Positions 2,967 through 59,655 of a stretch of 64,000 nt of DNA are shown one piece after another. The DNA lies in contig CAJINV010000001.1 in assembly GCA_905178155.1 (NCBI GenBank), positions 10,844,311 to 10,908,310 of the forward strand, written 5' to 3'. The notes under the pieces are model-generated. The model worked only from the letters and a program-made list of their open reading frames with translations, was not told the DNA's origin and searched no databases. Made by a program: the position numbers and the translations under genes. The stretch's first letter is position 1, and each line of letters starts with the position of its first letter. Source of the stretch: Amoebophrya sp. A120 (lineage: Eukaryota; Protista; Dinoflagellata).

Positions 2967-5855
2967 ATGCTCAATACCAAGGCAGATAAACTTCTACTCA
3001 GCGTCTACGAGACCGCCCGTCTGCAGGGTGTTCCGGATGGCTGCGTTGGGTTAGCTGTGCGAGAAACGGTTGGTGTGCAGCGGTGTGTGGCTTTCAAGGG
3101 CTGCCCGGGTGTGATCGTCGCGCTCTGTGACTCCGCAGAAAGCGAGCGGGCGTTTGAGGCCAACTTGCACCGCAAACCCTGGAAAAAACTGACGAAGCGC
3201 GCAGCTAGTCTCCAGGTTGATCGGCAGCAGGTCGGGAAAACAGCTGGAGATAATCAACTCGACACGTGTGAGGTGATCCCGGCCTTGGATGACCGGAATC
3301 CCAGCGGCTACGGGAAAAAGATCAACGGTGAGAAACTGCAAGCAGTTTTGTTTGGGCAGCTTCTGGCAAAGGCCACCGGTGCAGCAAAAGCGTCCGTAGA
3401 GAAGCTGGCCAAGGATCTGCAGCCGCTGGTCGTTTCCGTTGGGGCAGACGGCGTGCTCGAGCCTTCGACTGTGGCAAGTTCCTCTGAAAATACTTCGAGT
3501 GAGAAAGCTTTCCAGCCGGCTTCTCGTGGGGCGCCTTCGAGCCCGATGCGAGGACCAGCCCCGGCGGTAGACGTTCTCTGCAACGATCCAGATGGCACAG
3601 CGGGACTGGCGGTGATGCGTGGGCTTGTTGCAAACGCGGACATTCCAAGCCTGGCGACGTCGTTGCTAGCGCACCCGAAGAAAATTCAGGCCGAATGCGG
3701 GGGCTTATGGAATAACAACCAGCCCGAGCCTCTGGGAATGCAGGGAAGAGTAGTTGCTGCGGTGGAAGGACTACCTCTGGAACAGTTCCCCGGTCTGCAC
3801 GGGCGTTTTCGCCTCGATGGAGCCAATGTTGGCGGTCGGACCGCCGATTTGCTCCCGTTGAACCCAAGTTTCGCCGACGTTTTGAAGAAGAACAGCCCAA
3901 ATCAACATGGTTCAGTCCCGGAAGTCTTAGCAGAGAAGCTGCGCCAGTTCCAAACGACGTCACTAGCCGTGTCTTGGGAGCAGGCGAACGGGCGCAAGTT
4001 GTCCCAGGAGCGCACCCTGTGCGGGTGGGCCTACGACGCCGATGCTGTCGATGGCACACCGGCCGTGTGGGTGAACCTCGGACGCGCGCCGGTTACCTGG
4101 GCTTTCAAAAGGCTGAAGAAAAACAACGCGGCCGATTTCACGATCACGCTTTCCCCGGGTGACGCAGCGATTCGCTGGGGGCAGAAGGCGAGGTGCGAAT
4201 GGTGCACTGCCTGTGTCGGGTTGGGAGATAGTGCGACAGAAAATGGAAAAAGGGAAGATGTTGCCAAGAAAGGCGTGCTCGATCTGATCAACGTGAAGCT
4301 GGAGGACCACCGCGCTCTTCGCTCCAAAAACGCCGCCTTGTTCGACAGGTTGCATCGGTCAGACGCGACGCTGACGCCCGATAAGTGGTTTCAGCTCGAG
4401 TTTGAACTTACGGAGAACACGACCACGACAAGCACGTCCGGCTTGGAAATTTCCGCGTTCTGGCCTGGGTCCAGGCCGGCTAAAAAATGCGTCGACGTTC
4501 AGGCTGCGGCTCCGGCTTCGAAGGCCGAAGTAAACTCCAAGCCCCGGTCGGGTAGATGGAACAAACGCAGAAAAACAGGTGACGAGGAGACTGACGCTGC
4601 GCCGACGGATGAACAGCCGGGTGCTCCTAGCTCTTTTGCAGCCGAGGAGAACAGGATATCACTGAAGTCTGCCGCACAGGTGCAAAGCGAGCAAATCGCA
4701 AAGAAGAATCCTCCACCGAAGGAGGATCAGAAACGCGGATCCGGCGCTGTCAGTATGAAATCCGCAGCCCGGGTCGCGGCCGAAAGTCTGTTTGCCGACC
4801 TGCAAACGCACATGGCGAACGACGACCTGATCAAGGGGTGGGAGGCACACCGCCGAACCTGCAACGGTAAGGCCCGTGGTCCCCTCCGCGCCGCCGCTCG
4901 GGACATTCGTCTGAAGGCACAGAAAGCCGCCGGGGAAACGTCTTTGGAATCTTCGACGTCAGGCGCCTACGTGGCGGCACTGCGGCTCTTGCACACGGAG
5001 CTGGCTCGCGCAGGCGAAGCCGACTTCGACGGACAGTTGCGGGATGGCGCTGCGTGGTTGGAAGAAAAACTAGCGAAGGTTGGAAGTGCGCAATCGGCAA
5101 ACAAGGACTTTGTGGAGAACGCCAACAACCCGCGTGAGGGTAGTACCAAGATAGCGGTTTCTGTGGACGAGTCGGTCGTGAAGAATATCCTATGTAAAAA
5201 CGTCCCTACACCAGAGTCAAGCTGGGGATCTCGCAACACAAATCGAGAAGTTTTGGGGGTCCAGCATGATAAGTTCGTCTCTGTATTGTAGTGTAGTTTA
5301 GCAAGCACAGCCGCAACACAAATCCATCTACTTATCCTGTCGACAGCATTACAAAGCGCAAAACGCGATTGGAAATGCCTCTCATGTGGATGCGCATATA
5401 GAAATCTTCCTGTAGCTGCAAATCTGCATGACAACTCTGGGCAAAGTGCGTCGCATTTCGTTTAGCATGACAACTCTGGGGTGGGTACATTTTTACTCAG
5501 GATAAAGAAAGATTATCCGAATCTGCTGGCGCGTTTGATGAAGCAAAGGGCCAGTGGGCACCGAGGAACGGCCTTCACTCGCGACTTGCGGCAAGCCACG
5601 CAGTGGGCGGATTCCTGTCGTGCGAGGTGGCAGAAGCTGCAAAACGACAGCGACCAGCAGCACAAGCAGAATCTCCAAAGTAGTTACCTCGACGCTGTGC
5701 AGCACTTGTGTGCTGAACTGGAAAAAGAAGGCGAGCCTGACTTCGACGGGCAGCTGCGGCGGGCCGTGAACTTTCTCCAGGGTACAAAGATGGAATACTT
5801 CCACCCAGGCCTCGAACCGGGGAAGAAGAAAACTACCAGGTCTTACATAGGCTAA
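2967..5855 (+). CDS. AlkB/2OG-Fe(II)-fold-like protein with duplicated C-terminal helical module; 2 exons (2967-5185, 5510-5855)
   Basis: ORFs 2940..5291 and 5481..5855 share a frame and join as SVVKKDYPNLL after removing 324 nt. GWAYDADAVDGTPAVWVNLG...LSPGDAAIRWG resembles the AlkB core. GEADFDGQLR / GEPDFDGQLR repeats lie on either side of the insertion. Confidence 0.65.
5186..5504. mobile_element. Family A TIR introner (A1)
   Basis: TIR TATCCTATGTAAAAACGTCCCTACACCAGAGT / ACTCTGGGGTGGGTACATTTTTACTCAGGATA; perfect TSD AAGAA (5181-5185, 5505-5509); GCATGACAACTCTGGG is duplicated near the right end; no GT-AG register. Confidence 0.92.
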
Positions 5856-22532: not shown

Positions 22533-25500
22533 ATGTTGTCTCGGCTGCTTGGAAAGTCCGGATCGAAGGCCCAGGTGAAACCTGTGGTCGTCGAGCAGCC
22601 TTCCGTGGGGATCAGTGCGAGCTCCGGTTCCCGCTCGAAACCGGAAATTGGGAAGTCGCCTGAAGCAGCGCAAAAGCTCAAGGACCAGATATCCGATCCC
22701 TCCTTTTCCGGCGCATCGCCCAAGACCATGACGGCGCAACAGGCCTGGACAGGTCCGTCCGACGGCGAGGCGATGCCAAGCAAGAGTGCACAAGCAGGAT
22801 CTGTGTCCCCTTCAACAGCGCACAAGCACCAGCCGCAAAACTACCCGCAGAGCAAAGCCGCTGCGAGCTCGTCGTCGTCTTCCCCGACCAACGCACAACA
22901 TCAGAGCAAAAGTCTGGGGACCACGACTCTGTTACAGCAACAGGAGGATCACGGCGGTGAGGCGTCGACGGTGAACAAGCGAAACAACAGCAACGGGCAA
23001 AGCAGCGCGGGCGGGAAGACAAGCACGACCGCCATCAGCAAAAAGGAACAGCAAGAGGTAGAGAATTCGAGTCATCCGAGCAAGATTCTGCCAACGGCGT
23101 CGACGTCGACGGCGCAGTCGTCAGTGCTGGCGGCCTACAACGCGGCGACCAGTCCCACCACGCCCCAGCTCCAGCGGCAAACCAATAGTCACATCAAGTC
23201 CCCGGGTCAACGTTCGCAGGAGTCGAAGCCCCCGTCTTCGAGTGGTGGCCCGGCGGGGCAAACAACGTCGCCGGGTACTAACAGGGAGCGCCGCTCGCGA
23301 CGGCTGTCGGACCCGCCGCCCGCTGGGGAAATGCTCGCTCGGCCCCGGACCGATCCGTGTTTGTCGACCAGCACAAACCGCAGCCATCGAACGGAGAATT
23401 CCCAAGTGCTCGCGAGCAGCGTCGAGTCTATCAGCATGGTGCACGGAGGGTCTGCGGGGGTCGACCCGCAAGCTGCGGGCAACTGGTTGGACCAGTGCGC
23501 GAGTGCGCCACAGCTCGGGAAGGGCATGTTGTTGTTTGGCGATGCTGGCATGCCGAAGAACCTGCACCAGGCCTGGGAAGGCGAAACGACCCGCTCTAGC
23601 ACGCGCTCGCCCGTGAACATGAGAGGGGTGCCCCGCGACGCCGTTCCCAAGCCCTCGGAAGTGATCCAAGAGTTACTGCAGGTGGAGGTGCTTCACGACA
23701 CGGAGTACTGCGTGACCCTCTGCTGCTGCTCCACCTTCGACCCTACGCCGCTGTACGAGGTGAAGTTCATTTCCTTATTCCCTTTTGCTTTATTTTCATA
23801 GAGCACAAGAATAACTTAACGGTTTTGGTCAAGCTTTACTGGTGGATCTTTTCGAGGCACTAAAGGACGTAACTACATTCTTGATCATCGTCAACGGGAA
23901 AAACCAGAGCGTGTAGTCTGGCTGTCTGCCTGTATCTGAGCGCATAATTTCATGTGAGATAAACGTGAACATCAATAGCGTTTCCCTGCGGTGACCTTCG
24001 TGCCAGAATTCACGACGGACGAGCACGCGGAGGCGTTGGCGAACAATTTGTTTGCGGAGGACTCGCAACTGCGGTGCTGTATCATCATTGCGTTCTTGAC
24101 TGACGAAGAAAATCCGGTCAACAATGACAGCATCCTCGTGTCCCGCTTGCTGAAGACATTTGACTGCTCCTCTTTCGTTCCGCCTATCCTTGTATATCAT
24201 CATGCTGTTGCTTTTGATCATGTAAGTATTCATCTGATTACCTTGTTGAGATGAGTCAATGACAATGTATGTCCTTGACGCTCATGGTGACCGATCATTC
24301 TCGTTTTGCTCACATGGGACGAGATGTTTTATCATATCTTTCAGGTATTGACACCGTACTTCGAAGACGGATTCGCCGGCATGAGTGAAATGGAGGCACA
24401 GCAACGCTATTCTACTGAAAAGCATTCCCACCGCAGAGTCAAAGTGTCAGCTCTGCTATACTTTTGTAGGTTGGAGGCATCCGATGCAGAACAAGTTTTG
24501 CGAGTACTATCGCGGCCTACGACATTGACATGAGTGGTTTTGATTCGCTGGCAAAGCCGCATTACAGAGCCACTTTCTTTCTAGTTGTCAGAGCATCGCC
24601 ATCGCAAATTCCTGAACGGCTGAGAGAGTTCCTTCCATGTACAGGGGCAACATCCATCGCGTCTGTCACTGCAATTACGTACCGTTTCGCATGACAAGCA
24701 TGGACTTCTGCGCGTGGACGTTTTTACGCAGGATCAGCGCTTGGTTGACCGCAGCAAAATCTTTGCTGGGTACGGGGCGGATGACTTTTTGTTTTGGAAA
24801 GTGAACAATTGGAATTCGTTGGCGACCCGCCGGAGCCGCAGCGCATCCCCCGCGGCCACGGACCAGCACCACCTCGCAACTGCGAGTAGCACTAAGACCG
24901 ATACGTCGAGAAACCGCACGGAAGGCAACAAGGAAAACGAGGCGCCAGGCACGACGAGCGGCGGGGAGAAGGAAAACCGCTCGACGTCTTCGAACTCCAA
25001 TGCGAGAGAGAACAAGGGTAAGCGAAGTACCAGAGACCACCAAATAAACGGTATCCTGCGTAAAAACGTCCCCACCCCAAAGTCAAACTGGAATCTCTGC
25101 AACACAAATCCCGAAGTTTATATTTGGTAGAAGTCACGCATGACAAGTTTCGGTGGTAGGCGGGTTTGTGGCAAGCAAAGCCGCCTCACAAAGACGCGAG
25201 CTTATCCTGTTCACAGCATAGCACGACCAGAAATGCCTCTCATGGGGATCGATTATCTGCATAAACAACTTTATTTGCTTTGATCTCTGTGAGCAGATTG
25301 ATTGGGGCGTTTTTCCTCAGGATACAAGGCGCGGATGTGGATGAAAGAGGACAAAGTGAAACGGAAAGTGCGATCCAGCAGAGCATGCGGCAAGTTCAGA
25401 CGCTACGGGAGCAGATTTTCGAGCTGCAGAGCCGGGAACTGGAACTGGACATCGAGACTTCCTTGGCCTGGATCAACCACAACTTGGAGACTATGCGGAA

Positions 25501-27979
25501 CCAGCTGTCCGGCTCGGAGGCGATGAATACGATGATGACCAACTACGTCGAATTCAAAAAGAAGCAAAGCGCCGAGCTCGTCTGGGACTACATTGCGCAG
25601 CACCTGATGCCCTCCTTTCCGCGGTCGACGAGCTGGGCCCTTTGTGAGTCCGACACAAGCCTGGGAAACATGAAGTTCGTTGGAAAGCTGGGGGAAGGGA
25701 TGATCGGGAGGGTGTACAAGGTAAGGAAAGCACGAAAAGAAATAGAGCGCCCGGAGTTGTACATACAAGCTTGTAGTTCTTGTTTATTCATCACTGTATC
25801 GAGAAAATGAAAATGTGCTGGACTCAAATACTGTGTTACTACACAAAATCTGTCATGATCTTGGAGGAGGTCAGCACGACCAAAATATTGTGAAGGATTT
25901 CGAAAAAATACAACGCACAACAGGGAATGTTGATGAAACCATCCGAAATGGCGGAGAAGCAAGTGAAATTACAGGACTTGCTGGCGAATTGGAATACGGA
26001 CCCGAGACGGAAAGGCCAGCCCCGACCCAAGCACTTTGCCGTGAAGAAAATTCCCAAGTGGCGCTTCGAAAACGGTCCGGAGCTCGAGGCCCTGCTGCGA
26101 GAGTGCAGGATTCTGTCCAGCTTTAACCCGCACCCACGAATAGTTGAATTGTACAACATCGTTATCGAAGGAAAATGAAACTGTGATAGTGTAACAGTCT
26201 TGCGTTGACAGCATGTAGTTGACAAATGTGCTGCTCTGCATGGCGGAGAAAACCTGTCATGCACCATGGCTACCACTTGAAAACCCACAAGAAAAGACGA
26301 CTTGGTGGGTCGTGTCTGGCATGACCGGTGTGACTGTTTGGCATTTTCTGCATCACAGACTTACGCTCACGCCGTTTTTCTCTTGCATGACCGTGGCGTC
26401 GGACACCTTCATCTACATCATACTCGAATATGCCGGGAGAAACAGTCTTTTCGAGTACTTACCTGTGACATGTATGCGATTTCGACATCATGATCGTCAA
26501 AAATTCTACTCTCCCGGGATGAAAATGAATCACCACACACGCCGCGGCAGGGTCGCGCATGTGCGAGCGCTTCTGTTTTTTCGTGGTGCAATAAGAGCAA
26601 CATTTGCAGCTAGTTGATACGAGTATGATTGTAGTTGTAAGTGTTTTGAATCTTACTTGAACAACTTGTGTAGAGTTTACTGATTGATAAAACAGTCTGC
26701 TGGCCCACGAGCAAAGAAACTCGGGCGGACCAGTGGACGGCTTCCTCGCGCAGCGGCTTTTCTTGCACATCACCGAGGGACTGGCGTACTGCCACGGAAG
26801 GTTTGTCTGTCACCGCGACTTGAAGCCGGAGAATTTCATAATGGAGACGCCTAAGGACCATGCGCGCTACAATCCCGACCGGCCATGGTCAAGTGACTCT
26901 TTGAAGATTGCGGACTTCGGTCTCGTATGCATTGCAAATATGTCTGGACTATTTGTCATTGTCATTGCATGTTCAGAGCAAAACCAAAAGCAATAAAAAA
27001 CTTCTGATGCTGTCATGCCGTACAAGTAGATGCTACTTAGTACTATGTATGCGATGCAAGTAGCAGCAACACAAACTTCCAGACCCAGACATAGTTTCAA
27101 AGCATATCTCGCCGCCACCTTGAAAGCGGGGCAGAGACTGATGGCGCAGTGCGGCTCCATGCCCTTTGCGGCGCCCGAAGTGATGGCTGCAAAGAGCTAC
27201 GACGGGTATTTGTGATTGATTGTGGTGGATATTCGTCTTCACTTGTGCAAATGCGCAGACAAGTTTGAAGATAGTACTTACCATCAACATCAAGATCAGC
27301 ATGTTCGCTGGGGTGTATGTACAACACAAGAAAGTAGATGATGACCACGATGAAAGTGTGTGTGTCTTTGTCTCACGTAAGTAGGTACTTGCGTCGTAGG
27401 GAAGATGAGAAGTACAACTATCGATCCTCGAGGTGAGGTCCGCAGCTTCTGTGAAAACAAGGTTTAAGCTGGACGTGTGGAGCATTGGCGTGGTTTTGTT
27501 GGAGCTGACGTGTGGCGTAAGTAAGATGGAACGCTTGATGCGGTGGCCGATGGACGGGGCACTGTTTGCGGACGAAGAGAAGGCCCGGGAGATCTTCCAA
27601 AGAACCTCTAACGAGGAAAAGTTTCGGAACGACATCGTGCGCGACTTTCGACCCGACTACATGCGAAAAGCCGGCAACGAGTCCATCAAAAACCTCCTCA
27701 ACATGTTAACCAGAGAGCTGCTGGTATGATATCTCGAGGATAGATACTCTAGCTACTAGTGTTGATCTTCCGTGTTGTAATTCCGTGGCGCGAATCTGAA
27801 TCACAACTGGTGCTGGTAGCGGATCTAGATAGAAAATTCAACCCTCGGGATGATTGGATCTAGACGTAGAAACGATCCCTCAGGTCTTCGACGAGGCAAG
27901 ACGGTCCAGCATAACGCAGATCGAACAAAGCCCGTGGGTGGTCGACGCGAGACGCCGCGCAAAAGAATGGGGTCGTTAG
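22533..27979 (+). CDS. Ser/Thr protein kinase (CAMK/SNF1-like domain) with long N-terminal extension; 10 introns
   Basis: Spliced motifs LGEGMIGRVYK, FAVKKI, HPRIVELY, YIILEYA, CHRDLKPEN, KIADFGLA, CGSMPFAAPE, DVWSIGVVL, ELLVFDEARRSS. Introns 23760-23990, 24222-24344, ~24423-24698, 25051-25328, 25721-25923, 26161-26392, ~26458-26695, 26925-27110, 27206-27461, 27724-27883. Confidence 0.9.
25052..25324. mobile_element. Family A TIR introner (A2), forming GT-AG intron 25051-25328
   Basis: TATCCTGCGTAAAAACGTCCCCACCCC...GGGGCGTTTTTCCTCAGGATA; diverged TSD AACGG/CAAGG; removal gives QINGADVDERG. Confidence 0.88.
26163..26389. mobile_element. Degenerate TATC-starting introner in the kinase gene
   Basis: Begins TATC, flanked by ATCGT/ACCGT, several GCATGAC/GTCATGC motifs; removing 232 nt gives LYNIVASDTFIYIILEY. 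Confidence 0.6.
26926..27106. mobile_element. Degenerate family B introner immediately after the kinase DFG motif
   Basis: TATGCATTGCAAATATGTCTGG...CTTCCAGACCCAGACATAGTTTCAAAGCATA; perfect TSD TCTCG; removing 186 nt gives DFGLAATLKAG. Confidence 0.88.
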
Positions 27980-32500: not shown

Positions 32501-35078
32501 CATCTCCAAACCGCGCTCGTTTCTGCAGCTGCCGCAGTGGCATCGCGGCGGTGTGGTATTTGAGCTTTCGTCCACGGGGCCACTGCGTATCCTGGTTTCT
32601 CTTCAGATCGCCGGCGCGGCGCCCGCCCGTAGTACGGGTTACAACTGTTCGGCTGACGATTTTTGTGGGAAGAAATTTAGCCACACGACTCCCCGGGACG
32701 TTCATCTTGACAACAACGCGACGTCGCCGATTAAAAACAAAAATCAGTTGCTTTCTCCAACGCTGTCGCGTGCATCACAGGTGTCGCCTTGGATACCAAG
32801 GGCAAGTGGGCATGCATCAATGCGACGACCGAACCAAACCGGGCACCCCAATGTGTACGATGGGGCTTTATTCAGCCAGATTTTTCGGGAGCTAGATGAG
32901 CACTCCGACCTCGCGAATGAAGTCGCGCAAGCTGCGGCCGAGAAACGAAAACGGCAGAGTGCTCAGTTGGGCGTGCACCTAGATACCAGAGAGCTCAGTG
33001 ACACGACCAGAGAAACCAGCAGGTTTCATCCCCCGGTGTCTCGCCGTCAGGATGAAAAACCACTGCCAGCACTGTCCCCGTTGACCTCAACCCTGGGTGG
33101 CCTCAATCATGGGTGGAGCCATCAGATGAAGAGTCCAGTTGCAGCAGTGGATAGGCTCAAACTGGCGGATCTTCTCGGGGCCATAGCTGCATCGCACGTG
33201 CGCCGAAAGGTCTTTCAGATGACGCTAGCGCACCTGACAGCGGTGCGGTTTGTCGGCAAGCTGGCACTGGACCTCTTTCGCCTGTTTGAAGGCAACATCG
33301 CGCGAGCGGCCGCGAGCCGACGCGGATTGGCGTTTCTAGGCCATCTTCGAGGCGAAATGTTGCTTCGGTCGGGCAGCGATGATGGGCGCGGAATCTTAGG
33401 GGTTTTGGAATCCGGGATGAAAAAGGTATAGGATGCCATACATATCGCGTTTTTTTTTTATTTTTTAGAAGTGAATCTTGTTGAGCGATTGCATTGTTTT
33501 TGATCCTTGCAGTGAGCTGCGATCTTCGCTCGATGTGGATTGCTCTCTGTGGTCACCAGAGAATTTACTTTCTTGTGAAAGCGTTCAACTCTCGCGACAC
33601 GTTGGGAAATTGAGTTGTACTACCATGAAAAATAACGTTCAGCGGCTGGAGGAGTTGTTGCCTGGCTCGCACATGGCCCGGATTTTGCTCGTAATGGGCG
33701 ACTATCTTGTGGTCGCACCGTTTACTGCCATGGTGTTTGTTGACGGGGATAGTCAAAAATATGCCGAGCTCCGGTCCCCAAGCCACCTTCTGAATGCCAA
33801 TGGGACCACGTCAGCTGCCCCTGCTACTACACCATCGCGAACGACGAACACTGCTACCACGACATCAAGAGTGACGAGACATAAAATGGCCTTTGGAGGA
33901 GTTGGCATGTCGAGAAAGCAGCACGTCTTTCTCCCCCGTTCGCGGGGTTTCTCTGGCTACACATCGAGGGCGGGCGGTGGAGGGCAGCAACGCGTTGGTA
34001 GTTTTTCGGCGGCTAGTTTTCACACTTCCAAGCTGGTGAGCAGCAGCGCAAGCCACGTGCGCGCTGAAGGAAGATACTCCACGTGCTTCTATCTCTGCGC
34101 CGACACGCGGCAGTACTACCACGAGCGGGGGGCCTTCCTTGATCCCGAAGTCGACGGTGCGGAGTTGTGCTTTAGCAAACACACGGCGCACACGCTGGAC
34201 GACGTGCATTTTTTGTCGGCGCCGGTGTTCCTCTCGCCGCAGGTAGCGGGGAAGATGCTGGAGGAAGGGAGCCACTTTCACAGCGAGGCCGTCCCCCCAG
34301 ATGTGGCGCTGCTTCAGCAGAAAAACCAGCTTCTGCGCCTTCCACTTCCCCCGTATAGCTTGCTCAGACGCTACAATCTCAAACGTTACAATAGAATCTG
34401 GAATTTGTCTTGCATGCTGAGCATGACAGAATCGCAGAGCGTTCCACTTTCTGCAATACAAACTTCGCCTGATTGTAGTGGGGTTTGGGACTCCGGAACT
34501 TGTCATGCGCGATCCTATGAGAGTTGGCTAGATCATGCACTCTTGCATCACAGATTTCCATATTATATTGTAACGTTTGAGATTGTAACACCTTAGCGGG
34601 TTATACCCCAACCGCGGCCATTTTGCACGCCCAGAAACTACAACCTACAGCCGCGGTCGTTGGGGACACTACTTCAGCGGATCGTGACGAGAATCAAGGT
34701 GGCGAGGGAGGAGCCGCAGGAAACTCGGTAGCAACGACTACTGCACCTCCCCTAACGAGTTGCGCAAGCGGGATGAGCAACATACAACACGACGCCTTCG
34801 CTGTTGTGCAAATACTTTCCTATCGCAGGCCGTTTTCACCCACCGATGTGGACAACTTTCAGCACGCAGTGGATGTCTTCAGCCTCTCGCTCGAATCGGC
34901 TCTGCTCTCCCACTATTTAGATCGGGCCGAATTTGCTACCCTGGGTGAGTAGAGAAGGGCTGTGATCAAAGGTGGAGAAAAATGCAGCTGTTGCTGCACC
35001 TTCTGCTGCGCAGGATTAGAAGCGCGACCCGACCGCAGTGGAGGGGGGCAGATCGGACGAGAAGTGAATAGAATATGA
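29583..35078 (+). CDS. Large, mostly low-complexity protein with a possible degenerate C-terminal GAF-like segment; introns ~33426-33633, 34367-34596, 34945-35013
   Basis: A 1282-aa ORF followed by ORFs joinable in frame. FAVVQILSYRRPFSPTDVDNFQHAV resembles the last strand and helix of GAF domains (weak). End approximate. Confidence 0.55.
34367..34596. mobile_element. TIR intron of a distinct family (D), GA-AG boundaries
   Basis: ~38-bp TIR TACAATCTCAAACGTTACAATAGAATCTGGAATTTGT (from 34372) / ACAGATTTCCATATTATATTGTAACGTTTGAGATTGTA (to 34587); internal GCATGAC (34421) and GTCATGC (34502); removal restores the frame (SLLTGYTPTAA). Confidence 0.78.
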
Positions 35079-36225: not shown

Positions 36226-39200
36226 ATGGATTTTCCAGTAGAAGGAAGTACTCGAACTCGACGCAGGAAGGTCCCCCTCCTCTCCGCCCCATTTCTCTGG
36301 GGGAGCGCACAGCTTGCGGCGTACCTGGTCATCTCCCATGTCGTTACCTCATCCATCCCGGCGGCATCGTACTCGCTGCCGGTGCGCGTCGGCGATCTGG
36401 TTGCGGTCCGAGGGGTGCACGACGGCTCCCTGTTCGAGGTGATTGAAAAACAGGGGAAGGATTCCTGCACGGTGCAGTGCCTACACACGGACAAAGTGAA
36501 CACGGAGAACTGCCGGCTGTTGGAACCCGTGCGCCCTCTGTGGCGGCCCGCGGACGCGCACTGCCTCCGGCTGGAGAAGCCGGCGCCGACAAACGCCTAT
36601 TTTGACCCGCCTCCCGCGGCGGATCCGGATTCTGCGAACGAGGACGGGAGAGGACCACCCGACCATGGGGACGGTGCAGCGCACGTGGCACGGGTGGTGG
36701 CGGAGAGTGTCGCCCGGCCGCTGCAGGTCTGTCCGAGCAGCGCCACCAAGGACAGTATGAGGACGGATCGAGTGCTGAGCGCACTGGCCCGAGCGCACGC
36801 GGCCGACAAGGCTGAGGAGCAACGTAAAGCTGGAGGCGACGCGCCCGCGCCGGTCAGAAGTGGTGGTGGTGCTACTATCAAGGTCGTGGATACGCAGCTC
36901 TTTCGGACCATGAACGCACTATCCGCTGACATGCAGCGCCGGCTGGGGATTGCGACGAACGCCTTGATGTCGTCGCAGAGGTCAGGTGGTAGCTACGCCG
37001 GAGTTCTGGGGCCGCTGGGTATGGGACTGAACAAGCCGCGGGCCAAAAGCGAAGCCGAGATAATGAATGCGTGGCTCGATACGTATCTAGTGGCCGCCGT
37101 GGAGGAAGTGATGCAGCAGCAGGCCGCCGTTGAAGGAAGTGCGGTCGCTTCCGTGGCGGCGCTCAAGTGGGTCGAGTCTAGAGGGCGGGGAAGTGGATCA
37201 TCGCTACAAAGTTCGCGGGAGGAACATCAAGTGCAAGTGGACGCACTCGCACAGCTGGCGCGGACATCCCACGGAGCAGGCTCCGCGGGGACAACGCCGG
37301 GAGTCTCTGCGTCGCCGACGGGGCGAGTCGCAGCTGCCTTCGGGGTGATGCAAGCCCGCGCAGACAGGGAGCGGCGGACTACTGTCGACTTCCAGTCTAA
37401 TAGGTATCTACGCGTCTTTTTTTTGCGTTATTCGATGAATATCTACCTGCTACAACCTTTGCCGTTCTGCCGGGTCCGAGATTTATTTCTGATTTGACTT
37501 CCTCTGATCAACCATGTTGCATTCGCCTTGGCATAAACTACACTAAGTAAGCGCTGCGGTTGAACATGCGAAAGAAGTATTGACCATGCATAGAACCTTC
37601 ATCACTTTGATCGCACTAAAACAGATTTCACGAAACTCGCGCCCCTCTGCCAAACGAGGAATTATTTGCCGTCAAAAACTTGGAACGGCGGAAGGCGTGG
37701 GAATATGGACTTGAAGATTATATCGAGCGCGGAAGTGCCGTAGCGGGACATGACTCAGCCTTGACCGAACCACCACACGCTGCGAAAGTGCTAACGGTAT
37801 CTCCAAACTACGACGCAAACACTGGCGAGTTCAAGGGTGTCGGTCTCGCCTGGGTTCTTGCGAGAGAGAGTGGGCTACAACTACAACTGCCTGCCGCGGG
37901 CGGGGACGATCCTCGTGGAATTCTGTACAGGAACGCGCAATTGTGGGCGTTAGCGGAGTCTTCAAACCCGGCGAAACTGCCCTACGCGGTTGTCGACGAG
38001 GAGGAGGTATCAAATGTAAAAATGTCTGGGTCTGGAAGATTGCCAGGTTTGTCATGCACATTTTGCATGACTCCTGATGTCTGTGATGCATGCCGTAGCA
38101 TCACAGATTTTGTGAGGGCTTCCTGATGCCTATACCGCATGACAAATGCTCTTTCCGCGTAGCAAAACTTGGACTCTCTTTGCTGCTCATGCGATACAGA
38201 TTTTTTTAGAATCCAAAATCAGCATGACAAGTTGGATTCTTCCAGACCCAGACATTTTTACATTTGATAGGAGGTGGCGCGGCAGTTTGGCGCGGGCGCG
38301 GTGTCCCACTTTTTCAACAACGACCTCCGGCAGATGCGGGACCAGCGTCTCAGCTACGTCCAAACCGGGTACTGGAACCAGAATCGGGGAAGCGCCTCGC
38401 TGTTCCCACTGCTGATAGTGCTGATCGTGCTGGCCAGTCTGGGCATCCTGTTCCAGGTCTCGCTGCTCGTGCCCCTGGGAAAGGACCCGGAGGTGGATCC
38501 CGCCTGGATGCGGGAGGCCGCCTTGTGGGAGATGTGGCGTGCGGAAAATCCGGACGAGGAGTGCGAAAGCATCGCGGACGTGAAAAAGCGTCTGGAGGAA
38601 TTCAGATTCAAGCTCGAGAGCGAAAGCAAGGGAGTTGTACCAGACACGACGACCGCATCTACTTCTTCACATCTCGGAAACCCGTCGGAAGTGCAGCCGG
38701 TTGTTCCCAGTACGGCGCCGGTCGAAAAAAACCAGGTGGACGGGAACACCAGTCAGGAAAACCAGGAGGACTTCCCGGAGCTGCGGTCGGAGGAGGATTT
38801 TCTGCAGCCGAAGCTGTCCAACTTGAAGCCGTCTTCCAAGCGACAGCACGCACTGACGGCGGAGGAGAGCGAGTTTCTGGGCAAGCAGGTGGCGGCGTTC
38901 CTGGAGGATCAGGACGTCGAGGGGCGGTTCGAGCGCTCCAATTCGGGGACGACGGACTCGGAGCTGGGCGGGCACAAGGGGCTGGCGAAACAAAACGCCG
39001 TGAAGAATGCAACCGTCTGTGGGGACAAGGGGCAGGAGATGCGCGAGGCCGCGCTGAAGGCCGCGAGAGGCCGCCACGCCGGCATTTGGTGCGACCGCCG
39101 CAAGCGCCGGCCCTGGGCCAACCGGTGGGGCACCGGCGGTGGCTCGGATCATCAGCAGCCGGGAGTCGTCGTCCCGGGCTCCTCCCCGACGGGGTCGGCG

Positions 39201-42200
39201 ACCGAAAACAGCAATGGCGGGCTCCTGTCCGACTTCCACTCCGCGAACAAGAACCAGCAGGTATCCTGAGTAAAAACGTACCCACGCCAGAGTCGGGATG
39301 GGGATTTTGCAACACAAACCTAGGAGTTTTGTGAGTCACGCATGACAAGTTTCAGTCCGTAAGGTAGTGCAAGTTAGCAAGGAAAGCCGCATCACAAATC
39401 GATCTGCTGATCCTGTTTACAGCATTACAAGTTCCCAAACACGATTGAAAATGCCTGTCATGGGGTTGCGCATCACAAATGTTCCTGTCATGGCAAATCT
39501 GCATGACAACTCTGGTGTGGGTACGTTTTTACTCAGGATAACAGGTTACCAGCTACAAACCGGCCGGGCACGAGGTGCAGATCGCCTACGACCGTAACTA
39601 CCCGCCGGCGCTGGCCTACCCGCTGCCCGGGGACGACGACCTGTCTTGCTGGTCGGATTTTGGCGAAGAGTCTCCCAAGCGGAACAAGGCCCCCCGGTCG
39701 TCGACCGATAGCGACCAGCTGCATTTCACCGGCAGGTAAGTAATATGCATATACATTGGGCTGTTGTTCTAGTGTATGACTTTTGATGCTTTTCCACCAT
39801 CTTCAAGGGTCATTGTCCTTTGGAACTTACTAGATGATTGACATTCATGATCTTTCATGTCAGTCATTGTCCCATGTTGGAGTAGTTGACGCTGCTCCTG
39901 TTGTTGGTTGTCACTGGTCTTTGTCTTTCTAGAGCATTCATTGCTTGAAAGTCCCTACAATGCCATTCGTTACTGCATCAAAAATAAGTCGTTGGGGAGG
40001 TGCACTTCGGGCACACTTAGTCGCATCGAAAGATGACGCGCCACGCTTTTGTCATGTAGTTCATGTGAACCTCAGTAAAAAAAAAATCTAAACGAATTCA
40101 TTGACATGATCTTCAGGTCTTCGAATCATGTGGATTCCTGTGTGCCACTGTACTGCGGTTTTGGGGACCACGAAGACTCGCAGGAAATAGGCACGTCCAG
40201 CGCCAGCAGTGTGATGGCGGACTTTCATCGCGCCGGAAACAACGGAAACCTTAGCTCAAGCAGCAGCAGCGCGAAAGACCTGTTCTGGTCGGACTATCGG
40301 AACTCAAAACTACTGGTGAACAAGCGAGACGGCATATCCTGCGTAAAAACGATCCCAGTTATATGTAGTGAGGTCACCGAACGGTTCTAACCGGGGAGTT
40401 TTTTTGCCATGTCCCGTGAAAAACGACCGTCAGTTTTCAAGCGGTCGGAAGCGTTTTTTGACATAAAAAATTTTTAATTATCAAGCGGTCTGTGCTTTGC
40501 TGTCAAACAAGCCCGGTCGTAAACTATCGATTCGCACTTGATAAAACGACGCAGGGGAGCCGGCAAAAGGGGCGCCCTTCTGAGGCGCCCGCCGCCTTAG
40601 TTTCTGGCGATTTGGGGCGCCCAAAAAGGGGCGCGCAAAAAACGCGCCCAAAATCAGAACAGCGAAACAGCATGGCACGGCCGCGATTTCGGAGCATTTT
40701 GGACGGCCGCGAAAGCGGCCGCCTTTTCGCCGGTTTCAGAGCCTGGGAAGCTTTGCAAAAAGCGCCGGCGTGAAAAATAAAAACGCGAAAAAGAAAAAGC
40801 GGCCCGCACGCGCAAAGCCAATCCGCATGCTATGGGCCCGATTTTTCTTCGCTTTTTGGGCGCCCCCCGTGGCACCCGGATCGGCCCCATAGCATGGGGG
40901 CTGGCTTTCGGGAAGGAATTTCGGGAATTTGCCAAAATTTGCGATGTTTCCCAAGTGGCCGCCATACCGTGCGGCATAACGTTACTCGCGGTGGTATGGT
41001 GAGCCCATAAAAAGCAAAGCCGCGGCCAAGGCTGCGGTCGGCAAAAAAACGCCCACGACCTCACTACCCCCGCCCCGGCGGCTATATTTGGTACCCGATT
41101 GTCAACAACTACACGGATTTATATGCGCAAACAAACTCCCGGCGAGCTTTGCGGCTTGCTAACGCATGAGGACACGACACGAGCTGGATTTGTAGCATAG
41201 TCGTGTCCTGCTCCTGTAGCTAATCTGGCCGCATAACTACACATCCACGGCCTCATCCTGATATTGGAGTTGTACATTTGTACAAAGTTGCTGGTTCCAA
41301 ACAACTACAACATGTTGACTAGTACGAATAGACTAAAGAGCCGCAACAGAAACAAGCATGCGAGTATGTTGCTGCTTAAGTTAGGGCAAATGAGATTATA
41401 CATTATACATATGATATACGTCATGAAAAACCTTGGGCGGGGACGTTTTTGCTCAGGATACGGCACACGCGGGTCCGGTTCTGACGAATTGGAGCCTTTC
41501 CCTGAGGCGGACGAGGAGGACTTGGAAGATTTCCCCGACCTCGACGAAAATTCGGAGTGGGCGGACCCTGGGCAGGGCCCCGGGTACTCCGTCCGCGCGG
41601 TGGACCCGGCGGCGATCCACAGCGATCTGATTTTCTCCGGCCGAGAGCTTCCCGAGGACTGGCACCCGCCTGCGGGTCCGCCGTCGGCCGCGTATCATGA
41701 TGTGGAACGGGAGGGACGAGGTGGTGCTCCTGCTCGTGGGAACAAGCTGATGAGTGGGTCGTCCGACGAAATAGACGATGGCGAGCTGGAGGATTTTCCA
41801 GAAATGGAAGATTGCCCCGACAACGAACTAAACTTGTTTGCTCCTCCTGCGAACGGTTCGAATTTCGACGACCAGCCGGTGTCGTCGAGGAGGTTCCACA
41901 ACCTGAGCGGGTCGGACGACGCAAATTTGGAGGACTTTCCGGGGATGGAGGAAGAGGAATACGACCACCTGTGCGCCGGCCAACATCTCGCACGGGGCAA
42001 CAACCAGGAGCAACCGCTGTTGAACCAAGTTGGCGAGACGCAAAGTCAAGCGGCGGCTACTTCCGGGACAATCAGAAGTACGTTGAATAACAAAATGGAT
42101 GAAGAGGTCGATGACTCCGTGCTAGGTGATGCGAAAAATGGTCGCCGGGCGCCTCATTTGCAGCGCAGTCGCAGTTTCCCGCTGCCCCAGAGGAATCCTG

Positions 42201-44207
42201 GGGATAGTACGGACAGCGCGACATCAGCGGGGAAGCAGGATGATGAGCTGTACTTCCAGAGGTTCAACGAGCGCTGGAACAACGGTAAAAGCCAACAGAA
42301 GTTAGCTATGCCACCTCTGGCGCCCAGCCTGATGAGCCGAAATCTGCTACCGAAGTCCGGGTTAGACAACGAGCGCAGCGCGTCTACCATTCACGAATCG
42401 CACAGCTCTTTGGAGCAGTTTCCCGGTAGCGGCGTGGACAGCTTGCAGAAACGCGACGTGGCCGAACTGCCGTCCCCGATGGAAGACCGCAAAAACGTGG
42501 AAAGCCTGCCCGGGTCGCACGTGTACTCCGACCCGCCGGCGCTGCAGGAACGGGACAACATGTCCTTTGTCGTCGCAGACTACCATCAAGGAAGCTCCTC
42601 CTCGTTCGGGGGAAACCATAAAACGGACGTGAACCTCCAGTATGAAGACCATGACAACGGAATGAAGATGTTGCAGCAGCCCCGAGGAACGGACTGGGCC
42701 CACGTGCCGGCCAAGGATCTAGGCTTTGTGGCACAACAAGAGGAGCAACAAGTAGCCTCCACTCCTAGCACGGCGGGAGTTGTTGTTGGGCCTCAGAACA
42801 AAACACCAGTGGAAACACCAGTGGCTCCAAGTAGAACGCCGGCAGCAGCTGCTGCGGTGCCGCAAGTTCTAGTACAACAACATCTTCCCCAAACTACGAG
42901 CCGTAAGTACTCGAAGCCGCTGGAAACGGGCGCGGATCATGCTTTCGCGGAGAGATCTACCGACACCGGAGGGAGCGGGGGCCCTCGGACGAATAGCACC
43001 AGCACCTCCAACGGATCGCCCACCGGAGTCCGGGGGCACACGAACGAAGACGCCGTGTACGCGACTGCGAATCTTCCCCCGAAGCGCCGCCTGACGCGGT
43101 CCTATCAAATGTAAAAATGTCTGGGTCTGGAAGAATGCAACTTGTAGTGCGTATTTCAGAACACAGAAAAGTCTCTCATGCATACGTAGCAAAAGCTCCC
43201 ACTTTTTGCCAGCAAAATAGGGGACTTGTCATGCGGATTCGGCATTGCGGAAGGTTCTCGAAACCTGTGATGCTAGAGCTTCCATGCCAGACCTTCTCTG
43301 TCATGCAAAAACAGCATGACTCTTCCAGACCCAGACATTTTTACATTTGATAGGTCCATCAGCGACACCAATCTGTACGGCAGCGGAGCCGCTGCGGGGA
43401 AGGAATCCGAGAGGCGAACGAAGTGGAGGGATGCCAAACAAATGATCAAAACAGAGAAGGCCAAGAACGCGGTCAAGCAAGCGAATGCTGTCACGCACGT
43501 TGAAAATAAATGGAACGCCACCACCGTGCCGGCGTTGGAGACGTCGATGGTATGATTTAAGTACTATATTTGTACCGCTGAAATAAAGATGACGCGGGTA
43601 CTCATATAAGTAAGTCAAAGTTATGTAAAAAACTTCTAACACCGATGATCATGAACATGATTGCGTCTTCAAGAGCAGTGAAAGTTCTCCATTCTATTTG
43701 ACTTTCGTTCGTGACATCAACTCCGTATCATGCTAGCGGCACGTTCGACCCTGTTGAAAGCAAAAGGTGGAAACCCCAACCCCGCAACATACCGTCTCAC
43801 AAGGACGAGTTGCGTGTATTAAAAATAGGTGAACGTCGACTGAATAACATTAATAAACCAAATGAAACTTCTATATACAGGTGCAGCAAGAGTACTCGAA
43901 CCGCGAGGCGGGGCTGGAGAACGACAAGCTGCGACACGCTGCAGGTCTCGATACGGACTCGGACAACTTTGATTGTCGAACGGACAGCACGGAGGAGGAC
44001 GACGTTTCGGACCGGAGCAGCCTGATGTACTACCAGCAGGCCCGGTACCATCGGTTCGGCCACAGTGGCGAAAGCGGGGATTGGCACTACAGCGAGGGCG
44101 GGCCCTACGGGGAACGCGCCCGCAAGGCCTTCGTCATGTCCCTTGTGACAGAGAAGACAGAAGAGCTCTACGAGATTCTCGACCGTTGTGGCATCCACGT
44201 GCGGTAA
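36226..44207 (+). CDS. Large hypothetical membrane protein with acidic LEDFP repeats; 7 introns, 4 of them TIR introners
   Basis: Exons 36226-37403, 37625-38006, 38274-39260, 39545-39735, 40117-40334, 41466-43098, 43354-43549 and 43881-44207 all join in frame. Hydrophobic N-terminal segment, a TM helix (LFPLLIVLIVLASLGILF) and four (E/N/D)LE(D/P)FP repeats at 41487-41945. Confidence 0.75.
38008..38269. mobile_element. Family B TIR introner (B1), GT-AG intron 38007-38273
   Basis: Perfect TIR TATCAAATGTAAAAATGTCTGGGTCTGGAAG / CTTCCAGACCCAGACATTTTTACATTTGATA; TSD GGAGG; removal gives VDEEEVARQFG. Confidence 0.95.
39262..39540. mobile_element. Family A TIR introner (A3), GT-AG intron 39261-39544
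   Basis: TATCCTGAGTAAAAACGTACCCACGCCAGAGT / ACTCTGGTGTGGGTACGTTTTTACTCAGGATA; TSD GCAGG/ACAGG; interior homologous to A1. Confidence 0.93.
40335..41460. mobile_element. Family A-type introner (A5, 1126 bp) carrying a nested family F element
   Basis: TATCCTGCGTAAAAACG...GGGCGGGGACGTTTTTGCTCAGGATA; perfect TSD CGGCA; removing 1131 nt gives KRDGTRGSGSDEL. Confidence 0.9.
40361..41067. mobile_element. Family F element (short copy) nested in the left TIR of A5
   Basis: ATAT-GTAGTGAGGTC...GACCTCACTAC ends; 40361-40540 is homologous to 54357-54537, and 40541 onward to 55888 onward. Confidence 0.82.
43103..43352. mobile_element. Family B TIR introner (B2), GT-AG intron 43099-43353
   Basis: Perfect 31-bp family B TIR; TSD GGTCC; near-identical to 47811-48061; removal gives RLTRSISDTNLY. 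Confidence 0.95.
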
Positions 44208-44895: not shown

Positions 44896-44936
44896 CCGGT
44901 CGACGAGACCGGTTTGAAACCGGTTTCGTCGACCGG
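44896..44936. repeat. Near-perfect 41-bp palindrome
   Basis: CCGGTCGACGAGACCGGTTT-G-AAACCGGTTTCGTCGACCGG; 19 of 20 arm positions are complementary. Confidence 0.85.
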
Positions 44937-45436: not shown

Positions 45437-46774
45437 ATGACGGAAACTATCGCAACACGCCCCGCGCCGGTGGGTTCCTCCACCGTGGCGTCAACTGAGC
45501 AGGCATCATCCTCCAGCAAGAACACAGCCGTCGTTGCAGACGCAGAGGCACTGCGGAAGAAGCGGGTTCTGGAACTCTGCATGAACTTTGTCCAGCTCCT
45601 CCGAAGAAGACGGTTCAGTTTTTTTGTTGCGCATACAGTAGTTTTCGTTTCGCATACAGTTTCGCGGCTGGGCGAGAACAAACATGCAAAAGGGGGCGCA
45701 TGACTCGAGACAGAAGTTCTTTCACTTTTAAAGACAAAGAAGGTTCTTGCCGCGTGTACTTCTGGATGACCATCTTGTTGTCGCGGAAGAATCCCTGTGT
45801 TTCGTAGTGTTGTCGAGCGTGTAAGTACTTCCAATCAAACGACTAAGGTTCAAGCCCGCGTTGGAGATGGCTGGGGAGATTTTAAAGTTAGAGCCAAACC
45901 ATCCGCAAGTGGTTATCCTGAGTAAAAACGTCCCCACCCCATAGTTGTCATGCAGATTTGCGATTACAGGAAGATTTGCAATGCGCATCTCCATGAGCGG
46001 CATTTCCAATCGCATTTTGGAATTTGTAATGCTGTAAACGCGATGAACAGATGGATTTGTGATGCGGCTGCACTTGCTAAACTGCACTACAGGACGGACT
46101 GGAATTTGTTATGTGTTGCTCCCAAAGCTTCTGGGTTTGTGTTGCTAAGTTCCCAAGTTGACTATGGGGTGGGGACGTTTTTACATATGATAGTGGTACA
46201 GCACCTGGACATGCTGGAGGAATTGGCAGCGTCGTCTTCGGAGTCCGACGCGGGTTCCAGTTCCTCCTCCTCGTCCGATTCCGAGGAGGACGAGCCCGAG
46301 CTTCACTACGTGGCCACTCAGCAGTTCAACCCACAAGACTATCAACATGAATTGAAGTAGTGTCCCCACCACCGGCCCACATGGCAAAGTTTTCAAATAA
46401 AGACTTTTGGTCCGCGTCTTGCACGTTTCTTTGAGCGAAGACTATCTCTGCTTCAGATTCATCTAGGTGCGCGAAGCAGCTCCTACATGACAAGTCCCCG
46501 CCCCGGTGCTGCGCCGTTCGGCAACATAGACACTCGCTAATATTCTTGCTTGCAAGAAATGTGTCATGCTGATAAAAAATGCCAGGTCGTGGCAAGTGTT
46601 TTCATAATTGGGAACTGTTGCAATGCAAACATTTTCCCTTTCATCTGGGGTGGGGGCGCCTTTCAATTTGATAAAGACGGGGAAGCTGGCTCCACCCGCC
46701 CGCCCTCGGTCGGCGGGGCGGCGTCGGATACAGGGACCGCACCCTCGGAGTATCCCGTGCGGCGCCTCGACTAG
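45437..46774 (+). CDS. Small ERICH2-like (TPR-like helix pair plus acidic Ser-rich tail) protein; 3 introns
   Basis: Exons 45437-45612, 45848-45913, 46198-46339 and 46679-46774 give NFVQLLRRRRFKPALEMAGEILKLEPNHPQVVQHLDMLEELAASSSESD...NPQDGEAGS. The ERICH2 resemblance is from memory. Confidence 0.65.
45914..46192 (-). mobile_element. Family A TIR introner (A4), inverted relative to A1/A3
   Basis: TATCCTGAGTAAAAACGTCCCCACCCCATAG...CTATGGGGTGGGGACGTTTTTACATATGATA; perfect TSD GTGGT; interior is the reverse complement of the A1/A3 interior. Confidence 0.92.
46340..46673. mobile_element. TIR introner with A/B-hybrid termini
   Basis: TATCAACATGAATTGAAGTAGTGTCCCCACCACC...CTGGGGTGGGGGCGCCTTTCAATTTGATA; perfect TSD AAGAC; removing 339 nt keeps the frame. 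Confidence 0.85.
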
Positions 46775-47216: not shown

Positions 47217-48823
47217 ATGGTGTACACCGGCACCCCAAAGATTTTTCTGTACGGCGACAGCTTGACGTATCACGAGAAAAAAGTGTTACAGTTACACAGT
47301 AAAGTGCAAGCCCAGCATGACAGGCAACCTCTGTCATGCCAGAAATGCTTCTGAGGTTCATTTCATACGTGTTTTCCCTTATGGTCTGCGCATTGCAAGT
47401 TTTCCCTCTCATGCAGAGAAAATTTGTGTTGCTGAAGGTACAACAAATGTGTATCTGTAACACTTTTTTCTTGTGATATGACGCAGTACGGGTCTAGTGA
47501 GGTTGGCGGGTGGGCGGCCCGCCTCCAAGGCCTTTACAGTCGCCGCGCCGATGTTGTGAATCGTGGCTTATCGGGCTGGAATAGCCGCTGGGCGCGCGAA
47601 TACGTCGATGGTGTGGTCTCGCGCGACCTCGGTAACGACAAGTGCATGTTTGCGAGTGTGTGGCTCGGCGCGAACGACGCCTGGCTGCCGTCCGCGACCG
47701 CGGGGGGTAACAAAGGCAGCCGGTATGCGGTTGGTGTGGAAGACTTCAATGCGAATCTGTCTTACATAGCGAGGTGTTTGCTTGACAAGACGGATCTGGT
47801 CTTCGTTCTCTATCAAATGCAAAAATGTCTGGGTCTGGAAGAATGCAACTTGAAATGCGTATTTCAGAACACAGAGAAGTCTCTCATGCATATGTAGCAA
47901 AAGCTCCCCACTTTCTGTCAGCAAAATAGGGGACTTGTCATGCTGATTCGGCATTGCGGAAGCTTCTCGAACTCTGTGATGCTAGAGCTTCCATGCCAGA
48001 CCTTCTGTGTCATGCAAAAACAGCATGACTCTTCCAGACCCAGACATTTTTACATTTGATATTCTCACCCCACCTCCCATCGCGGAAGACCGGCGCAGGG
48101 CGTACGCCCTCCAGCTATACAACGAATATGTTTGCGATCGCGAGCTATGCATATGGTAAAATATGTCGTGGTGGTCTGGAAAGTTATAAATGCAATTTTG
48201 GGAATTATGATCAGATTACATCAGATTGGCGCACTGCAATACGTGGCCGAGCATGACAAGTGTTGCAAAGGTTTTAATGGCGACGGTGCAAAGGTTTTTG
48301 ATGAGGTGCAGTCGGGTATGCGTGAAAAGTGTTGCCATGTGTTGCGCATTCGGCATGGCAGACTGCATTTCTGCATGACAGGCAAGACGATTTTTTCGTG
48401 GCTATGCATTACAGAGTTCAGAGCCATGCCCGACGAGCATGGCAAACCTTCCACTCTTTCAGACCCAGACATCATATTTGCACTGGATACGAAAACGCGC
48501 ACACAGGAAAATACCGGGACGAAGTGAAGAAGGTCGTCGACAGCCTCAGCCAGGCGATAACTGTACGTGGCGAGAGCAAGCGAGTCGTCCTAGTGGACGT
48601 GTATGAACTGTTTTGGTCGCGCAGAGAGGACTTGCTACCTGACGGCCTCCATCTCGGCGAGGAGGCAAATACGATCCTGTTTGGCCACCTGAGTTCCCTT
48701 CTACACACCGAGGGTCTGGGCGTTGTCGCAGATCCGGTACGGGGACACACGGGGTGCAGTGCGGCGAAGAGCTCCCTGCCGAATCCGCTCCCTTGGCACG
48801 ACGACACAGCGCAACTGAGATGA
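47217..48823 (+). CDS. IAH1: Isoamyl acetate-hydrolysing esterase-like SGNH/GDSL hydrolase; 3 introner introns
   Basis: Reconstructed KIFLYGDSLTQYG, RRADVVNRGLSGWNSRW, VWLGANDA, VFVLTPPPI, DRENAHTGKY, LPDGLHL. Exons 47217-47267, 47484-47810, 48067-48143, 48493-48823. Confidence 0.9.
47268..47478. mobile_element. Family C TIR introner inserted in the GDSLTQ catalytic block
   Basis: TIR TATCACGAGAAAAAAGTGTTACAG / CTGTAACACTTTTTTCTTGTGATA; perfect TSD TGACG; internal GCATGACAG..CTGTCATGC. Confidence 0.93.
47811..48061. mobile_element. Family B TIR introner (B3), no GT-AG register
   Basis: Family B TIRs; perfect TSD TTCTC; removing 256 nt restores VLTPPPI. Confidence 0.95.
48146..48489. mobile_element. 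Degenerate family B introner
   Basis: TATGCATATGGTAAAATATGTCGTGGTGGTCTGGAAAG...CTTTCAGACCCAGACATCATATTTGCACTGGATA; TSD CGAGC/CGAAA; removing 349 nt gives YVCDRENAHTGKY. Confidence 0.78.
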
Positions 48824-59562: not shown

Positions 59563-59565
59563 GCC

Positions 59566-59655
59566 AGGGCAGGGCAGGGCAGGGCAGGGCAGGGCAGGGC
59601 AGGGCAGGGCAGGGCAGGGCAGGGCAGGGCAGGGCAGGGCAGGGCAGGGCAGGGC
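59566..59655 (+). repeat. (AGGGC)18 pentanucleotide microsatellite
   Basis: 18 perfect AGGGC units, counted directly. Confidence 0.97.

Follow-up and report, generated by a model that had tools for sequence, protein, structure and literature searches.

Amoebophrya sp. A120 is reported to carry about 30,000 introners in 1,954 families, whose inverted repeat (IR) consists of TAT, seven loosely conserved bases and at least three A residues (PMC7789003). We analysed a 64,000-nucleotide stretch of this genome (contig CAJINV010000001.1 of assembly GCA_905178155.1, forward-strand positions 10,844,311 to 10,908,310; hereafter the window), in which introns of several families share the heptamer GCATGAC or its complement GTCATGC. 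The heptamer was found to be part of a longer site, for which the best reading is a set of subterminal and internal sites used in transposition, not an RBFOX-type splice signal and not a pairing seed.

The repeats of the window start with TAT, end with ATA, have terminal inverted repeats (TIRs) of 20-35 bp and are flanked by a 5-bp duplication, and by these ends and duplications they match the published IR signature of A120 introners. The IR TAT-N7-AAA was found at both ends, with families D, G and H keeping the TAT and not the A run. Further features in common with the A120 introners described in PMC7789003 and PMC12130899 are the short direct repeats, the mostly non-canonical ends, the length of 150-320 nt for the listed families and the location in co-oriented genes. 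In the window, all genes that could be placed by their open reading frames (ORFs) lie on the + strand, with Pfam matches to kinase, GDSL, FSH1, RhoGAP and DUF3638. The direct repeat of published introners is by definition 3-5 nt at the exon/intron boundary (PMC7789003), whereas the target-site duplication (TSD) here is uniformly 5 bp: it is exactly 5 bp in 239 of 277 elements, and in 118 of 138 among those picked regardless of TSD. As short, non-coding insertions with TIRs, TSDs and many dispersed copies, the elements are miniature inverted-repeat transposable elements (MITEs).

Comparable internal repeats are known from Emigrant/Lemi1, where several short repeats lie inside the TIRs in both orientations and their arrangement matters, as here; the Lemi1 transposase binds them cooperatively, and like cases are cited for CACTA, hAT and Tc1/mariner (PMC1636448). 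The A120 site likewise has copies near both ends, an orientation independent of transcription and conservation in transposing lineages. It differs from the Emigrant repeats in being spread through the interior as doublets of 31-33 bp and in being common to families with unrelated inner TIRs, and its binding is predicted. The TA..TA termini are also those of IS3EU/GingerRoot elements (TAY..RTA in fungal IS3EU), in which the TSD is usually 6 bp (PMC10045372, PMC12730594) compared to no 6-bp duplication among 277 elements here; no subterminal motif turned up in a search of the IS3EU/GingerRoot literature. A120 introner family 38 is described as 'Ginger, 5-bp TSD, TA/TA termini' with ORFs like long terminal repeat (LTR) integrases (PMC12130899). 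The available text on A120 introners (PMC7789003, PMC12130899, PMC11282704), 20 A120 supplement rows and the supplement figures aside, describes no internal motif or spacing rule. The supplement text of Farhat et al. (PMC7789003), figures outside the search, gave no match to gcatgac or gtcatgc, and among the literature matches listed for the motif letters none concerned transposons or protists by title. The elements, and subterminal binding repeats as a class, are already known; neither this motif nor its spacing was found described in the sources covered.

The site and its distribution

Elements were collected with a TIR pattern covering both ends of family A and B elements, which recovered at least 131 loci (L001-L131) in one metagenome assembly. 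Together with the window, these loci gave 279 elements with a TSD match of 4 or 5, of which 268 came from metagenome contigs. Single-linkage clustering merged families via shared motif stretches, so families were typed by TIR and lineages were defined by 60% interior alignability. Typing distinguished ten families (A-J) and six others, A-D being the families of an earlier, sequence-only reading of the window and E-J being added here. Families A and B (63 A-type and 126 B-type elements) are over-sampled and biased to intact ends, and C-J came from flanking sequence with 3-30 copies each. Motif statistics used 270 of the 279 elements, with those longer than 420 nt and unclassified elements left out; the near-duplicate loci L037 and L054 were both kept, and summed DNA depth over repeats was not taken as copy number. 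The metagenome finder required TAY..RTA ends, and TA..TA termini hold there by construction; in a window search made free of this filter, the strongest TSD-flanked inverted pairs all begin with TAT. TIR patterns had no match in viral or prokaryote contigs, and none of the at least 131 loci was orthologous to the window. Partial alignments were found between families C and I, A and G, and D and G. The 242 insertions of the L001-L131 elements show no visible target-site preference. GT-AG ends are possible in 11 of these 242 in sense versus 8 in antisense, and thus no filter for canonical ends acts on the insertions.

When TIRs were masked and each family was given equal weight, GCATGAC was the top shared 7-mer; nine of the ten families had no fewer than 0.4 copies per element, and the mean was 1.37 compared to 0.058 after dinucleotide shuffling (about 24-fold). 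It is only the commonest form of the learned site, GCA(T/A)(G/C/T)ACA(A/G)(A/G)TT, which spans 10-12 bp and occurs 2-5 times per element. Position 5 of this site is G in 52%, C in 26% and T in 21% of cases. A narrower motif, SCATNRCA, fitted worse than the learned position weight matrix (PWM). When the PWM was built with one family left out, 1.7-5.2 sites per element were detected in the omitted family versus 0.04-0.17 in shuffled sequence, in all ten families and with a small circularity in that training sites were called with the full matrix. The density of full sites was 25/kb in element interiors versus 0.14/kb in window exons. Since the enrichment held in both the family-collapsed and the left-out-family tests, it is real across families; common ancestry and base composition, which the sequence-only reading had named as able to make it vanish, do not remove it. 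The site is common to ten families whose inner TIRs differ, each being conserved, and it is not part of the TIR.

In the window itself, GCATGAC or GTCATGC was observed 34 times compared to 9.07 ± 2.94 expected (100 dinucleotide shuffles, largest 19). All 19 positions at which the sequence-only reading had placed the heptamer carry it, and 15 further copies were found (1757, 6318, 26256, 39340, 39501, 43228, 43300, 43314, 45698, 45947, 46563, 47937, 48009, 48023 and 62879). The window was divided by hand into elements, introns, exons, intergenic DNA and GC-rich repeats. By this partition, short TIR or eroded elements hold 28 heptamers per 4.1 kb (6.8/kb), other introns one per 3.1 kb, exons four per 40.3 kb (0.10/kb), intergenic DNA one, and the long GC-rich repeats (4.8 kb) none. 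Exonic copies are few, as had been noted, with 1757 and 62879 added to 13253 and 54078. The density of sites follows the same partition, at 15.6/kb in elements, 0.15/kb in exons and 0.34/kb in the 11.7 kb of intergenic DNA examined.

The arrangement of the sites was found to be regular. Same-strand distances of 31-33 bp are among the commonest in all ten families, and such a pair is present in 19 of 23 lineages (mean 3.2 and maximum 9 in 1000 random placements). Element 39262..39540, for instance, has its six + sites in three doublets of this spacing. Across subfamilies, 58-98% of copies have the modal doublet length, while the spacers are 32% identical between families versus 29% in shuffled sequence and are not tandem copies of each other (27.5 versus 25.9%). 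In most cases the distance from the terminus to the outermost site that points outward is 28-33 or 37-41 bp; of 270 elements, 251 have sites no further than 55 bp from each end. By lineage, the best period of same-strand spacing was 10.4 bp (R 0.46; p 0.0025, the lowest value attainable with 400 permutations). A spacing of three helical turns in which the spacer sequence is free would be expected from selection by proteins that sit on one face of double-stranded DNA.

Orientation, splicing and conservation

Element orientation relative to transcription was assigned by a second-order strand model, which was correct for 143 of 148 cases (97%) in leave-one-out tests on 150-nt pieces and for 10 of 11 window elements (45914 being miscalled), and which agreed for 247 of 273 same-locus pairs. 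An initial fourth-order model was correct in only 51 of 87 leave-one-out cases, and its orientation counts were discarded. Among 237 elements, 625 sense and 665 antisense sites were counted; GCATG occurs 417 times in sense and 475 in antisense, and 42 of the 237 have no sense GCATG. In family A, the sites are confined to a single strand in at least 40 of 61 copies; of 39 fully polar ones, 21 are sense.

Splicing was read from contigs of runs X3, X4 and X5, which are labelled 'RNA?' and were treated as transcripts because they contain exon joints missing in run X1. At least ten introns at 37.4-46.7 kb of the window are skipped by these contigs and not by X1, including the elements that start at 38008, 39262, 40335, 43103, 45914 and 46335. 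Three of the skipped introns cannot be read as GT-AG. Six reads of the raw RNA run X11 were placed, and for the other window elements no joint was found among those listed.

Pairing within the elements was examined in alignments of five subfamilies. No interior helix with stacked compensatory change was found; the repeated mirroring co-changes are TIR pairs. The consensus structure of family A is nearly empty inside the TIR, and an apparent interior hairpin in family B had no stacked covariation and was rejected. Opposed site pairs 13 and 19-20 nt apart do occur and could form short stems. In the alignments of families A and B, positions of the left TIR co-change with positions of the right one on several branches (four times for A 18/259, three times for B 9/252), which indicates that TIR symmetry is kept, by pairing or by conversion between ends.

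Constraint was compared between branch types on trees of five subfamilies comprising 192 copies, internal branches representing lineages that kept transposing. Relative to spacers, core positions of the site had an observed to expected (O/E) ratio of 0.17 on internal branches (confidence interval 0.10-0.24) and 0.37 on terminal branches (0.31-0.45). The inner TIR gave 0.21 and 0.51, respectively, and the direction was the same in all five subfamilies. On internal branches, the rate of change is 0.002-0.004 for G1, C2, A3 and A8, whereas position 5 (the G in GCAUG) evolves as fast as the spacers (0.072 on terminal and 0.040 on internal branches). Motif positions are thus conserved relative to the spacers, and together with the enrichment across families this bears out the selected cis-signal proposed by the sequence-only reading. 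The heptamer that it took as the unit is indeed enriched, but the real unit is the 10-12-bp site: GCATGAC copies that lie outside full sites show no conservation (31 columns; O/E 0.97 on internal and 1.12 on terminal branches).

Time since insertion was estimated from TSD mismatches, of which there were 17 in 134 × 5 sites (0.025 per site; 0.049 when the 4 of 138 elements with a TSD match of 2 or less, left out here, are included). This clock gives a post-insertion divergence of 0.0125-0.025 (calculated by hand), and the terminal core rate is 0.024 per site. In a two-part model, about 0.016 of neutral core decay (also by hand) falls within the clock range. The core/spacer ratio is higher in TSD-mismatched copies (0.49 versus 0.35). 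The TSD-clock and core rates fit selection at transposition, followed by roughly neutral decay. The 'eroded introns' in which heptamers had been noted do contain them but are decayed copies of the same elements (26160-26407 of family I; 24440-24733 with an A-type TIR), and survival of a few sites there is expected because old copies began with several. Persistence of the motif after TIR decay does occur, although element 40335-41460 is a counter-example that keeps its TIRs and TSD but has GCATGAC on neither strand and lacks a full site near the ends. Such persistence gives no evidence that the host selects for the motif, since on terminal branches constraint is relaxed on the motif and the inner TIR alike.

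What the site may serve

With moderate confidence, we consider that the site is bound as double-stranded DNA by the machinery that transposes the TAT..ATA introner MITEs, the binding being a prediction. Several protomers of one DNA-binding protein would load on the same helical face, 31-33 bp being three turns, and the protein loaded at both ends and in the interior would help to build a paired-end complex. From the TA..TA ends and the integrase-like ORFs of A120 family 38, the lead candidate for this protein is an integrase-like transposase, or else a companion protein that an autonomous partner would supply. In the competition for the protein, copies with good site arrays would win over the others, and families with different inner TIRs would thereby keep or converge on the site, which would decay about neutrally once inserted. 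Splicing would be independent of the sites, with the terminal hairpin and TSD as candidate splice determinants.

Several observations weigh against this reading. No binding protein or autonomous partner was found among the 22 ORFs of the window, and Farhat et al. (PMC7789003) report that A120 yielded no transposase and argue against a general mobilisation by transposase. The Emigrant repeats copy part of the TIR, which this site does not, and the differing inner TIRs of the families fit a shared host cofactor equally well. Against a null with rigid doublets, helical phasing is weak (p 0.04), most of the 10.4-bp signal being the doublet; convergent pairs have a period of 15.6 bp, and the family-weighted best period of same-strand pairs is 15.7. 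Family B copies are majority-sense versus majority-antisense in 36 versus 62 cases, with 4 sense versus 15 antisense in one B subfamily (p 0.019, one of nine tests), although this antisense lean is opposite to that of an RNA enhancer. The TSD clock allows up to about 40% residual constraint after insertion, and assembly errors would raise terminal-branch rates as well. Finally, the 268 metagenome elements of the 279 come from one assembly, and the search pattern favoured intact A and B ends.

The main rival, given that the inner TIRs differ by family and that no transposase has been found in A120, is a host protein such as an architectural or chromatin factor, which would bind the site on double-stranded DNA as a shared cofactor of family-specific transposases, with selection still at transposition. 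IHF and HMGB1 are cofactors of this kind for other transposons. One site outside the TIR, common to ten families whose inner TIRs are different and each conserved, is consistent with such a cofactor, and the geometry and branch evidence fit it equally. By contrast, the intergenic clustering that a common host site might show is not seen in the 11.7 kb examined, and we regard this explanation as unlikely, if the least so among the alternatives. An orientation-independent intron mark on DNA, where a chromatin-bound protein recruits splicing co-transcriptionally, would account for splicing in both orientations, would suit a lineage in which U1 small nuclear RNA (snRNA) is reported as undetected (A25 and A120; PMC7789003) and could use the residual post-insertion constraint that a terminal O/E of 0.37 leaves possible. 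However, intron 40329-41459, which has non-canonical ends and lacks a full site near them, is spliced, other window introns are nearly devoid of the site, and constraint more than halves from internal to terminal branches, unlike what a host need would produce; such a mark is improbable. It is comparably improbable that one protein reads the phased array in every TAT..ATA family and serves both as shared transposition factor and, for as long as the array persists, as chromatin mark by which a U1-less spliceosome removes new insertions in either orientation; if true, the intron would be defined on DNA rather than RNA.

The remaining explanations are less likely still. That the sites are unselected remnants of one ancestral element would agree with the TAT..ATA ends and 5-bp TSDs of all families and with the partial alignments (C-I, A-G, D-G), but the core changes at 0.17 of the spacer rate on internal branches, and the spacing persists although spacer identity hardly exceeds that of shuffled sequence. 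Inheritance is thus contradicted as the full explanation and, as such, very unlikely, while shared ancestry alongside selection is possible. Among the three functions offered by the sequence-only reading, only the transposase site fits. The RBFOX consensus is (U)GCAUG, and GCAUG lies within the commonest form of the site. Nevertheless, an RNA element bound by an RBFOX-type RNA recognition motif (RRM) protein to mark the intron hardly deserves credence: the sites show no strand preference, 42 elements lack sense GCATG, the fifth base, an invariant G in the RBFOX element, is free, a conserved ACA(A/G)(A/G) tail and three-turn spacing set the site apart from the RBFOX element, and introns 45908-46191 and 46335-46673 are spliced with no sense GCATG. 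A role as self-pairing seed of a hairpin in RNA or in single-stranded DNA, for which the short stems between opposed sites would speak, fails on the mostly polar copies of family A and on the lack of a covarying interior helix in the five subfamily alignments, and is given equally little weight.

Binding by the transposition machinery is therefore retained as the best reading. One conserved site and spacing rule across families points to a single shared mobilising system, and the site could serve as a pull-down bait, as a signature for an autonomous partner and as a marker of decayed introners among 'singleton' non-canonical introns. The internal motif can be set aside as a splice signal in RNA; candidates for that role are still the TSD and the terminal hairpin.

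Elements and other features of the window

Coordinates of the individual elements are given below.

Table. Introner elements of the window with their duplications and sites (coordinates are those of the window).
Position	Element	TSD or ends	Sites	Further details
5186..5504	Family A TIR element	TSD AAGAA	Full sites 5233, 5264, 5313, 5346, 5426, 5465, all +	
24440..24733 (left limit approximate)	Eroded A-like element	Right A-type TIR only	24559, 24599, 24689	Kinase gene
25052..25324	Family A element, interior rearranged		25099, 25138	
26160..26407 (limits approximate)	Decayed family I element		26251(-), 26350(+), 26375(-); bare heptamers 26319, 26385	74% identity to family I over 229 nt
26926..27106	Short B-type element	TSD TCTCG		
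34354..34605	Family D element		34402(-), 34421(+), 34453(+), 34497(-), 34545(+)	
38008..38269	Family B element	TSD GGAGG	38046(-), 38078(-), 38098, 38137, 38191, 38222(+)	Spliced out, joint 38001-38269
39262..39540	Family A element		39309, 39340, 39389, 39422, 39470, 39501, all +	Spliced out, joint 39257-39542
40335..41460	Long A-type element with nested repeat of another class	TSD CGGCA; non-canonical ends		Spliced
43103..43352	Family B element	TSD GGTCC	Five full sites, all antisense	Spliced out
45914..46192	Family A element inserted in reverse	TSD GTGGT; non-canonical ends	Five sites, all antisense; no sense GCATG	Spliced
46335..46673 (+)	Non-canonical intron, eroded element	TIR-like right end	46485(+), 46558(-), 46620(+); no sense GCATG	
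47268..47478	Family C element	TSD TGACG	Five sites	GDSL lipase gene
47811..48061	Family B element	TSD TTCTC	Five antisense sites	95% identity to 43103-43352
48146..48489	Diverged B-type element		48251, 48353, 48373, 48406, 48437	
49876..50205	Family F element, beyond those of the sequence-only reading		Six full sites, no exact GCATGAC	FSH1 gene

Removal of the short B-type element at 26926..27106 together with one TSD copy restores the kinase reading DFGLA...APE (read by hand). To the right of the rearranged family A element at 25052-25324, CAAGG recurs about 34 nt upstream of the left TIR, where it is followed by GTAAGC (window 25013-25051). From these letters, the intron may have gained a canonical donor; among the RNA joints listed, none lies there.

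A second repeat class, which lacks the motif and which may be Helentron-like, was found at 40360-41086 and 54357-56512, with a related block at 59170-59250. Its copies start with ATATGTAGTGAGGTCAC, end in a partial inverted copy and a GC-rich hairpin, and have a repeated word of their own, GCATGCTATGG. GC-rich blocks are common to the copies (40537-40642 versus 55884-55989, 80%), and one of them is nested in the spliced A-type element, at a depth of about 25 bp. A 1.5-kb GC-rich element at 59864-61373 has 75-bp A-like inverted ends (77%), no TSD and no Pfam match in the three overlapping ORFs tested, and carries the second internal word in place of the main motif.

Outside the window, L036:1807-2831 and L052:114-1157 align over 1.08 kb at 86% identity and possibly represent a duplicated gene. 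Within the window, a very long gene of about 3,300 codons (7402-17351) has matches to DUF6606, DUF3638 and DUF3645 and contains no TIR introner, and a (GGCAG)n microsatellite at 59554-59666 adjoins a 126-nt tandem duplication (59340-59591).

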